From Eledone cirrhosa (lineage: Eukaryota), in the NCBI GenBank assembly GCA_964016885.1, contig OZ024741.1, positions 350,238,001-350,302,000 on the forward strand: 64,000 bases of DNA, in the 5' to 3' direction. The notes beneath the pieces are model-generated. The model worked only from the letters and a program-made list of their open reading frames with translations, did no database searches and was not told the DNA's origin. The translations under genes and the position numbers were made by a program. This document shows, one piece after another, positions 7,815 through 64,000 of this stretch (positions are counted from its first letter, which is position 1; the number at the start of each line of letters is the position of its first letter).

Positions 7815-8190
7815 TATTATAATGAAATGACAGGAGGCTGGACTTGTGTAAATCCTTGAAAGGTTTATTGTTTATTATACTATGATCATTTCAATGACCG
7901 GGTTCCGTATGAATCCGGTGATATCATCAGGTATTCGAAATATAATAAGTGAATGCAATAGATAAAATCCATGGGGCTGAAATGCTGGATGGCGGTCGTC
8001 CTCCGGTCTTTGATTTTCAGCCCCATGGATTTTATCTATTGTATTCACTTATTATATTCACTTATTATATTTCGAATACCTGATGATATCACCGGATTCA
8101 TACGGAACCCGGCCATTGAAATGATCATAGTATAATAAACCTTTCAAGGATTTACACAAGTCCAGCCTCCTGTCATTTCATTATTATATA
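7815..8190. mobile_element. Inverted-repeat insertion of a Penelope-like pLTR fragment with an HHR in each arm
   Basis: Arms of about 170 bp (7815-7984 and 8012-8190) are near-perfect reverse complements around a short spacer; (TA)n flanks the right end. Confidence 0.8.
8076..8133 (+). ncRNA. Type I hammerhead ribozyme (mirror copy on minus at 7877-7934)
   Basis: ATAC-CTGATGA-[stem II with CCGG.TTC/GAA.CCGG]-GAAA-TGATCA-TA-GTAT. Stem I is ATAC/GTAT, stem III is the palindrome ATGATCAT, and the cleavage triplet is AUA. Confidence 0.8.
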
Positions 8191-9135: not shown

Positions 9136-9142
9136 TATATTT

Positions 9143-9280
9143 TTAGCCATTGCTCGCACCAACCTGAGGTATATGGCCTTTAATGCGACGAAATGCCTAC
9201 GACGGTTCGAAGGCCACTGATGAGGACAAACTTTTTCATATGTAACCCATTTCCAGCGCCGCAGCTCCATTATTATCATA
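9143..9280 (+). repeat. Short copy of the structured repeat family also at 52985-53500 and 63570-64000
   Basis: Shared TTGCTCGCACCAACC...GAAAT.CC...CACTGATGA...CATATGTAACCCAT. Confidence 0.7.
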
Positions 9281-9285
9281 TTTAC

Positions 9286-9321
<36 letters not shown>

Positions 9322-9530: not shown

Positions 9531-9691
9531 CGAAGGAAATGTGGTAAGGAACCAGGTGGACCATAACGCACCAAAGTACTCAATACTTGAGGTAGTAATT
9601 GGGTAATAGGAACCAGTAAGACCCCGACAGCTGAGCTCAAGCCGTTTCGTCGAAACGGCTTGAGCTCAGCTGTCGGGGTCTTACTGGTTCC

Positions 9692-17758: not shown

Positions 17759-18290
17759 AAGAGAGTATTGAAGTTTGCTTGAAGGATTGTGGAATAATAA
17801 AAACATTGGGCATTTTGGAAGCCTCAACAATGCAGATGGGTAAATCTCCGGGTAACAGAATCCGGTGGTGAAGAGAGAGAGATGTAAAAGGAAATGTAGA
17901 ATGAGATGTATAGTGTGTAGAGGAACGTAGGAAAGAGCATAAAAAATAAAAATAATAACACGAGACAAAGTTACCTTGGGAGAGATTTAATTGTCCCTAT
18001 ATTTCGGATTTCGCATCCATCAACTGGGGGGTTTTTCCGAGGGGGAAAGTTATCTGTCGGAGAGGAACGGTACGTGGCCTCTGTTGTCCGCCGTTTGTGT
18101 GTAAGTTAGACACAAATGGCGGACAACAGAGGCCACGTACCGTTCCTCTCCGACAGCTCTTTCCTACGTTCCTCTACACACTATACATCTCATTCTACAT
18201 TTCCTCTTACATCTCTCTCTTCACCACCGGATTCTGTTACCCGGAGTTTTACCCATCTGCATTGTTGAGGTTTCCAAAACGACCAAACAT
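17758..18290. mobile_element. Doubly inverted pLTR-like fragment with degenerate HHR
   Basis: Outer arms about 17815-17938 and 18155-18280, inner arms about 18054-18097 and 18114-18155. Minus strand 17995-18030 reads CCC-CAGTTGA-TGGAT GCGAA ATCC-GAAATATA-GGG. Confidence 0.55.
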
Positions 18291-35614: not shown

Positions 35615-35650
35615 TCTTCTGATGAAGAACTAATGTCCGAAACGTTAGGA
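35615..35650 (+). ncRNA. Minimal HHR
   Basis: TCTT-CTGATGA-AGAAC TAAT GTCC-GAAACGTT-AGGA. Confidence 0.55.
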
Positions 35651-52959: not shown

Positions 52960-52984
52960 TATATTTTTCATATATATTTACCTA

Positions 52985-53500
52985 CACTGCGATTATCTGT
53001 TTCTCTCTTTCTCTCTTACTGCTCCCCCGTTCTCTCTGTTTCTCTTACCTTCTTTCGCCCCCTCTGTCAGTTACACTTTCTCTCGACTGACCTCTTCCTC
53101 GCACTTCCACTCACTCACTCTCTGTTTCTCCCCTTCTCACTTCCTCCCGTTCGCTAGTAGTGGGGTTCCTTCTTTCTCACACCGCATTCACGGCGTACGG
53201 TCTGCTTCTGTGACCGCTCATGAAATTCACCCGGCTTATGCTGATCGGATAACTATCATGTTGCTTGCTGTTTTTCCAACCTTCGGTTTGCTTTTCCTTC
53301 TGTTGTTTACTTGTCTCACTCGCTTTACGCGTTTCACTTGTCCCAATAGCTTATTTTAGTTATTGCTCGCACCAACCTGAGGTATCTGATTTTTAATGCG
53401 ATGAAATACCAATGATGGTTGGCAAATCACTGATGAGGGACTAATTTTATAATATGTAATCCATGTGCAACCATGCAATATTCTTCTCCCCTTGTTTTTC
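52985..53500 (+). repeat. About 500 bp structured repeat; inverted homolog at 63570-64000
   Basis: Long colinear similarity (TCTGTCAGTTACACTTTCTCTCGACTG...CCATGTGCAACCATGCA). Ends in (TA)n. Confidence 0.8.
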
Positions 53501-59020: not shown

Positions 59021-59065
59021 AACGGTGCTGATGATAGCTAACAAGCTTGAAACTAGTACATCGTT
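59021..59065 (+). ncRNA. Type I hammerhead ribozyme, unit 1
   Basis: AACGGTG-CTGATGA-T AGCT AACA AGCT T-GAAAC-TA-GTA-CATCGTT. Predicted cut after 59058. Confidence 0.9.
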
Positions 59066-63566: not shown

Positions 63567-63569
63567 ATA

Positions 63570-64000
63570 AAACATGAGAAGAATGAATACTGCATGGTTG
63601 CACATGGGTTACATATGATAAAAATAGTCCTTCATCAGTGATTTTCCAACCTTCATTGGTATTTCATCGCTTTAAAAATCATATACGTCCAGTTGGTGCG
63701 AGCAATAGCTAAATAAAGCTATTGGGACAAGTAAATCGCGTAAAGCGAGCGAGACAAGTAAACAAACATAGAAGGATAGCAACGCAAAGATAGGAAAAAA
63801 CAAACACCTGGGAGTCCGATCAGCGTAAGCTGTGTGGATTTCATGAGCGAGAGACAGCAGACCGTCCGACGCGAGTGGGGTGTGAGCAAGAAAGGACCTC
63901 ACTTCAGGCCAAACGGGATGAAGTGGGAAGGGGAGAAGCAGAGAGTGAGTGAGTGGAAGTGCGAGGAAGAGGCCAGTCGAGAGAAAGTGTAACTGACAGA
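63570..64000 (-). repeat. Homolog of 52985-53500 (runs off the window end)
   Basis: Reverse-complement similarity, including the CTGATGA motif at 63632-63638. Confidence 0.8.

Follow-up and report, generated by a model that had tools for sequence, protein, structure and literature searches.

A predicted knotted hammerhead ribozyme with scrambled strand order at the 3' end of a non-coding Penelope-type repeat in Eledone cirrhosa

A hammerhead core in reversed order

The window, a 64,000-nucleotide stretch of Eledone cirrhosa DNA, carries three copies of a structured motif, each lying in a non-coding repeat of a different family (A, B or C; Table 1). A pattern of the core blocks matches the window three times (9169-9223 and 53382-53436 on the plus strand, 63632-63686 on the minus strand) and none of 100 shuffles, which confirms the three copies reported at 9150-9227 (+), 53360-53445 (+) and 63625-63705 (-) in a preliminary description made from the letters of this DNA. 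That description placed all three copies correctly; the 5' start of the family A motif had to be moved from 53360 to 53340.

All conserved hammerhead core bases are present, in the order cleavage site, GAAA, CUGAUGA. In the family A copy the general hammerhead consensus of CUGANGA, GAAA and NUH is represented by CUGAUGA, GAAA and AUC, and the order of the blocks is the reverse of the cyclic order (CUGANGA, GAAA, NUH) of hammerhead types I, II and III. Since the search patterns imposed the core bases, GAAA included, the invariance of the core is not independent evidence. Among 34 diverse representatives, the cleavage triplet is AUC in 18, AUA in 15 and ACC in one; N-U-H is kept in 33/34 and H is never G, a regularity partly fixed by the search pattern. 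GAAA occurs within 60 nt 3' of CUGAUGA in only 8 of 206 distinct copies, and nowhere nearer than 30 nt (these loci were chosen by search and are hence skewed towards families A, B and C). The lack of a downstream GAAA in the window copies is thus borne out across the larger set, which rules out the alternative that an ordinary stem II-GAAA had merely been lost in these three copies. Rfam returned no hammerhead for 53250-53500 at E values up to 10, two weak snoRNA matches for the motif and, among the 150 of 262 matches listed for the window, only repeat-driven miRNA-type matches.

Table 1. Parts of the family A motif, the repeat that carries it and the two other copies in the window
Feature	Position	Strand	Paired with	Remarks
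Non-coding repeat unit, family A, about 532 bp, in (TA)n	52966..53500	+		Pyrimidine-rich body, putative ribozyme near 3' end
Closing helix, 5' strand	53340..53343	+	53438-53441	91% paired; 1/4 pairs compensatory (G-C 21, A-U 7)
Hairpin between closing helix and stem II	53345..53364	+		95% paired; 4/6 pairs compensatory
Stem II distal 5' strand, displaced upstream	53367..53371	+	53397-53401	88% paired
Stem I/II tie-helix, 5' strand	53372..53377	+	53417-53422	94% paired; 5/6 compensatory
Likely kink-turn, short strand N-G-A	53378..53380	+	53411-53416 (3-nt bulge, G-A, N)	Shape inferred
Block S: stem III 5' strand and AUC triplet	53381..53386	+		Predicted cut 3' of C53386
Stem I, strand after cut	53387..53392	+	53424-53429	96% paired; 5/6 compensatory
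Block G: stem II 3' strand, position 11.1 (53402), GAAA (53403-53406), stem III 3' strand	53397..53410	+
Block C: stem I strand, CUGAUGA (53430-53436), position 10.1 (53437)	53424..53437	+
Optional 3' tail, about 48 nt, Penelope-type	53453..53500	+		5' edge approximate
Second copy, family B	9141..9287	+		5'-truncated inside hairpin; one tie-helix mismatch
Third copy, family C	63569..64000	-		Continues past window end; one stem III mismatch

Structure and covariation of the motif

Stems I, II and III flank the core, with stem II assembled from three strands. Just one pair follows CUGAUGA because the 5' strand of stem II and the strand of the tie-helix are placed upstream of the cleavage site, and the gap left by this split of block C is clamped by the closing helix and the hairpin. 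The preliminary description had judged stem II to be a single pair; it consists of 1 + 5 bp, and the misjudgement arose because two real helices had been read as a rival fold, namely CCAACC/GGTTGG and TCGCA/TGCGA, both of which the pair alignment places within the structure. Its account of the compensatory changes in stem I between the window copies, of stem III pairing (with the one mismatch in the 63625 copy), of the pairable bases after CTGATGA and before GAAA and of the cut predicted after 53386 agrees with ours. The spacing from block to block is constant within a base or two across families. In the minimum-energy nested fold of the window copy, part of CUGAUGA is paired with the upstream strand.

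A kink-turn comprises a 3-nt bulge followed by tandem G.A and A.G pairs, between two helices. The bulge and G.A pairs between stem III and the tie-helix likely form such an element. Its pattern is complete in 25/34 representatives, with the GA of the partner strand present in 34/34 and that of the short strand in 25/34; in 8/34 the short strand reads TTA.

The alignment was drawn from 201 distinct motif contexts, 14 of which were dropped as 5'-truncated; the remaining 187 formed 39 groups, reduced to 34 representatives. The five groups omitted (L070, L153, L160, L491 and L493) show deletions, another sequence in place of the 5' end or a long run of T, and leaving them out introduces a slight bias in favour of structure. 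Over 33 pairs in 34 copies, 93.0% of cells are paired, compared with 24-41% in slid controls, and changes on both sides occur at 18 of the 33 pairs, in 129 cells. The covariation noted between three copies in the preliminary description therefore holds in a larger alignment. It is strong for stem I, the tie-helix and the hairpin, and weaker for the closing helix and distal stem II; stem III, nearly invariant, shows none (96.5% paired, no double changes). Distal stem II is doubly changed at two of its five pairs, in only three cells, and its last pair is broken in 12/34. Pair 10.1:11.1 (53437:53402) is kept in 188/206 copies; among the representatives it holds in 25, with four pair types and G-C only twice, and is mismatched in nine. 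The copies are kin, which inflates shuffle-based scores; for this reason, and since the patterns fixed the core, shuffle counts should not be read as probabilities. Across 12 diverged families, conservation peaks at 0.82-0.90 in the motif, against 0.55-0.68 in the tail region and 0.34-0.78 in the body.

The repeat, its relatives and possible mobilisers

In the whole genome (3.0 Gb), a family-anchored pattern gave 10,804 matches, hence at least that many copies, versus one in the control; a looser pattern gave 12,400 versus 168. A pairing descriptor applied to 60 evenly spaced 10-kb stretches found six matches, two of them family members (none in reversed sequence, 0-2 in shuffles), a density consistent with some 10,000 copies. 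The units of families A, B and C are 532, 621 and 522 bp long, judged from the distance between successive cores in naturally occurring tandems, with an overall range of 520-625 bp. The best 40 genome copies for each window copy are 98-99% identical (99% over the query for family A), and these families are therefore young. Pfam found no reverse transcriptase family in 16 window frames.

Among the 206 distinct copies, (TA)n lies within 90 nt of the core in 193, at two typical distances: at most 20 nt from CUGAUGA in 27 and 21-90 nt in 166. Tandem copies account for 63/206, and 49/206 have an inverted copy upstream. The repeat thus combines partial tandems, inverted 5'-truncated copies, an optional tail and a microsatellite target, as expected of a non-autonomous Penelope-like element; the accessible text of Craig et al. 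(2021, PMC8557442) credits Naiad Penelope-like elements with a (TA)n target, an optional 30-40 bp tail, partial tandems and inverted truncated copies. Two internal starts of reverse transcription have been proposed to explain the optional tail (Frangieh et al. 2024, PMC11167929), a model that, as far as the available part of that paper goes, fits the fixed DNA end downstream of the ribozyme. A low-depth contig under a second organism label matches 52980-53500 at 99% and shows a tail-to-head joint. Elsewhere in the window, long near-perfect inverted repeats at 7894-8116, 9615-9690 and 18063-18147 are probably retroelement inversions.

A second family, unrelated-looking in sequence, has identical wiring without the kink-turn (19 copies scored); a weaker stem II 3' of CUGAUGA is also possible there. 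A pattern covering several families matched the genome 140 times, versus five in the control. We also observed three further low-copy families in scrambled order (L509-L543, L546), two of them related to each other and one with a kink-turn-like strand. At L544:6464-7050 (+), cores in the order site-GAAA-CUGAUGA occur in each of four short repeats spaced about 140-250 bp apart, possibly a small tandem retrozyme of scrambled type. Viral contigs yielded at least 120 stretches, of which 16 pass a loose pairing filter and none, among the matches listed, is convincing by eye. This wiring was likewise not found among the matches listed for metagenome contigs (at least 117 stretches), where one recurring family is an ordinary-order hammerhead.

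According to the available text of Craig et al. (PMC8557442), Naiads insert at (TA)n and have no canonical hammerhead, some being flagged as 'core' or 'half core'. We read excerpts of the Naiad consensus file by eye; they cover part of the 54 ends. In these excerpts the ends of Naiad_Ovul, Obim, Amil, Aacu, Anas and Bfor have the knotted wiring in different letters (stem I being only 2 bp in Bfor), as do four further consensuses without visible names, about ten in all. In the same material, octopus Naiad ends and family A share an 8-nt hairpin loop and the kink-turn spacing, and Naiads resemble the repeat in (TA)n targeting, optional tail, partial tandems and inverted truncated copies. The repeat differs in having no reading frame, and in those Naiads stem II is formed entirely from the upstream strand. 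The ribozyme end of the repeat likely descends from a Naiad 3' end. Six other Naiad ends in the accessible part of that supplement, including three from Nippostrongylus, look by eye like type CSG hammerheads.

The genome yielded no intact reading frame of a Naiad, only decayed reverse-transcriptase remnants: 64 Naiad-like remnants are present, all short or broken, with a longest open frame of 236 aa. The motif is absent from all 20 Naiad remnant 3' regions examined, although the repeat copies are young, and no motif locus examined has a linked frame with an N-terminal GIY-YIG and a reverse transcriptase, the arrangement of the Naiad clade. A short octopus-Naiad end motif matched the genome once, versus four times in controls; one Naiad protein-motif pattern gave no matches and another gave three (control three), all decayed Naiad-like remnants. 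Penelope elements with a C-terminal endonuclease are present, with open frames of 844-1096 aa, and could be the present-day mobilisers. As autonomous partners, 30 GIY-YIG loci were rejected because they appear to be C-terminal-endonuclease elements, and reading frames adjoining motif copies because they are separate insertions divided by (TA)n; locus L214 was abandoned as an autonomous carrier. At L214:3410-3440 and L236:2990, a C-terminal-endonuclease Penelope element has a type I hammerhead-like core seemingly antisense to its frame.

Relation to known hammerheads and interpretation

As set out in the accessible part of its defining paper (Eckert et al. 2023, PMC10085705), hammerhead type SGC has the non-circular order cleavage site, GAAA, CUGAUGA; its RNAs self-cleave as single short molecules that require all four helices, at slow rates (0.007-0.13 per min in constructs with flanks), and come from environmental sequence, with none found in genomes of known organisms. 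Of type CSG, that text knows only two metagenome sequences. Compared with SGC and HRIMA-1 as described there, our motif shares the S-G-C order, the full core, a short linker between stems I and II, a stem I/II tie-helix with a strand just 5' of the stem I strand of block C, and one extra base after CUGAUGA. In the tested ribozyme SGC-3, read by eye from the primer table, the 5' strand of stem II and the partner tie-strand follow CUGAUGA; tie-helix and stem II strands otherwise occupy matching places, except that in the repeat this moved segment lies upstream of block S, at 53367-53377. An intact block C, with the 5' strand of stem II after CUGANGA, is thus lacking: one pair follows and the rest is at 53367-53371, which breaks the assumption of uninterrupted blocks in the available text of that paper. 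The repeat motif also differs from the SGC examples given there in its extra closing helix, hairpin and likely kink-turn, and in residing in animal DNA at more than 10,000 copies. It appears to work like type SGC while lacking one defining SGC feature. A literature search, with most subscription papers outside its reach, returned no earlier account of this wiring and no report of ribozymes of this kind from animal DNA.

Animal non-LTR retrozymes, in the parts of the sources available (Cervera and de la Pena 2020, PMC7229834; Li et al. 2026, 10.64898/2026.07.22.740005), are 150-450 bp tandems with type I hammerheads, dimeric hammerheads occurring among them (PMC7229834). The repeat resembles them in being non-coding, in having one hammerhead per unit and in its Penelope-like link, and differs in its 520-625 bp units, mostly single or inverted, and in its scrambled ribozyme in place of type I. 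The window also contains, by eye, ordinary-order hammerhead-like cores (CUGAUGA ... GAAA) at 35619 (+), 19963 (-), 43033 (+), 25967 (+), 56652 (-), 8080 (+) and 7930 (-), which resemble those of other Penelope-like elements. Three tandem units of about 465 bp at 59028, 59494 and 59958 (+) each have a minimal type I hammerhead-like core; this unit, also present in L231, looks like a classical retrozyme.

We consider it very probable, on sequence grounds, that the motif, placed 3'-terminally in a non-coding repeat of Penelope type, is a cis-acting knotted hammerhead, predicted to cut the repeat's RNA after C53386. Points against this reading are the 10.1:11.1 mismatches, the unvarying stem III, the scant change in distal stem II, the competing nested fold, the TTA short strand of 8/34 representatives, and the failure to find an intact Naiad frame or, in 20 remnant 3' regions, the motif. 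Non-optimal 10.1:11.1 pairs and a nested competitor would suit a fold that serves mainly as a binding or priming signal for reverse transcriptase, its cutting slow, protein-gated or lost; the slow rates published for SGC ribozymes and the fixed 3' ends just downstream of the motif fit such a role as well. We regard this as improbable, since an N-U-H triplet in 33/34 copies, even if partly set by the pattern, and the strong covariation of stem I, expected for catalysis, speak against it.

Rather less probable still is that the pairings form between adjacent units of a tandem or between two RNA molecules, so that the hammerhead would be dimeric or of ordinary order, without a knot in cis. Covariation reads the same for cis and trans pairing, nearly a third of the copies (63/206) are tandem, and dimeric hammerheads have the retrozyme precedent cited above; the near-constant block spacing across families, a closing helix that encircles one unit, the cleavage of tested SGC ribozymes as single short RNAs (available text of PMC10085705) and the single copy at the Naiad ends we read all argue against it. 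The preliminary description had offered a pseudoknotted or trans-assembling hammerhead at a retroelement 3' end: pseudoknot, reversed block order and element end are supported, and trans assembly is unneeded and less likely. That the resemblance arose by chance and was spread by transposition is hardly credible. All copies share ancestry, and similar loose patterns do match viral and metagenome contigs by chance, but seven helices that together hold 129 doubly changed cells, and the same wiring in other letters in a second family and in excerpted Naiads of several phyla, tell against it.

For the favoured cis-acting hammerhead, the site-GAAA-CUGAUGA core would be held by seven helices, with the likely kink-turn between stem III and the tie-helix introducing a bend in the RNA that would allow the scrambled wiring to close. 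Read-through RNA would be cut at each unit, and tandem arrays would release monomers of 520-625 nt, perhaps circularised as reported for animal retrozymes in the accessible text of PMC7229834. A Penelope-type reverse transcriptase/endonuclease would nick (TA)n and copy the RNA there; copying that begins internally, about 15 or about 60 nt downstream of CUGAUGA, would account for the optional tail.

We lean slightly towards a broader proposal, in which Naiads and their non-coding satellites carry hammerheads of a knotted kind: the split wiring in elements of cephalopods, cnidarians and ctenophores and the CSG wiring of nematode elements would be two openings of one knotted circle, and, in the present repeat family, the kink-turn would let a host L7Ae-family protein (15.5k) switch cutting on. 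If true, non-circular permutations of RNA would be common in animal genomes. The proposed ribozyme would mean that non-circular permutations of the hammerhead, so far seen as rare environmental RNAs, also occur in animal genomes, and in many copies, and would add a wiring that the defining paper, in its accessible part, assumed away (PMC10085705). Standard hammerhead searches would overlook the entire class. Dozens of natural variants with compensatory changes provide ready constructs for cleavage assays and structure determination, and the finding suggests a testable reason for the apparent lack in Naiads of the hammerhead known from other Penelope-like elements.
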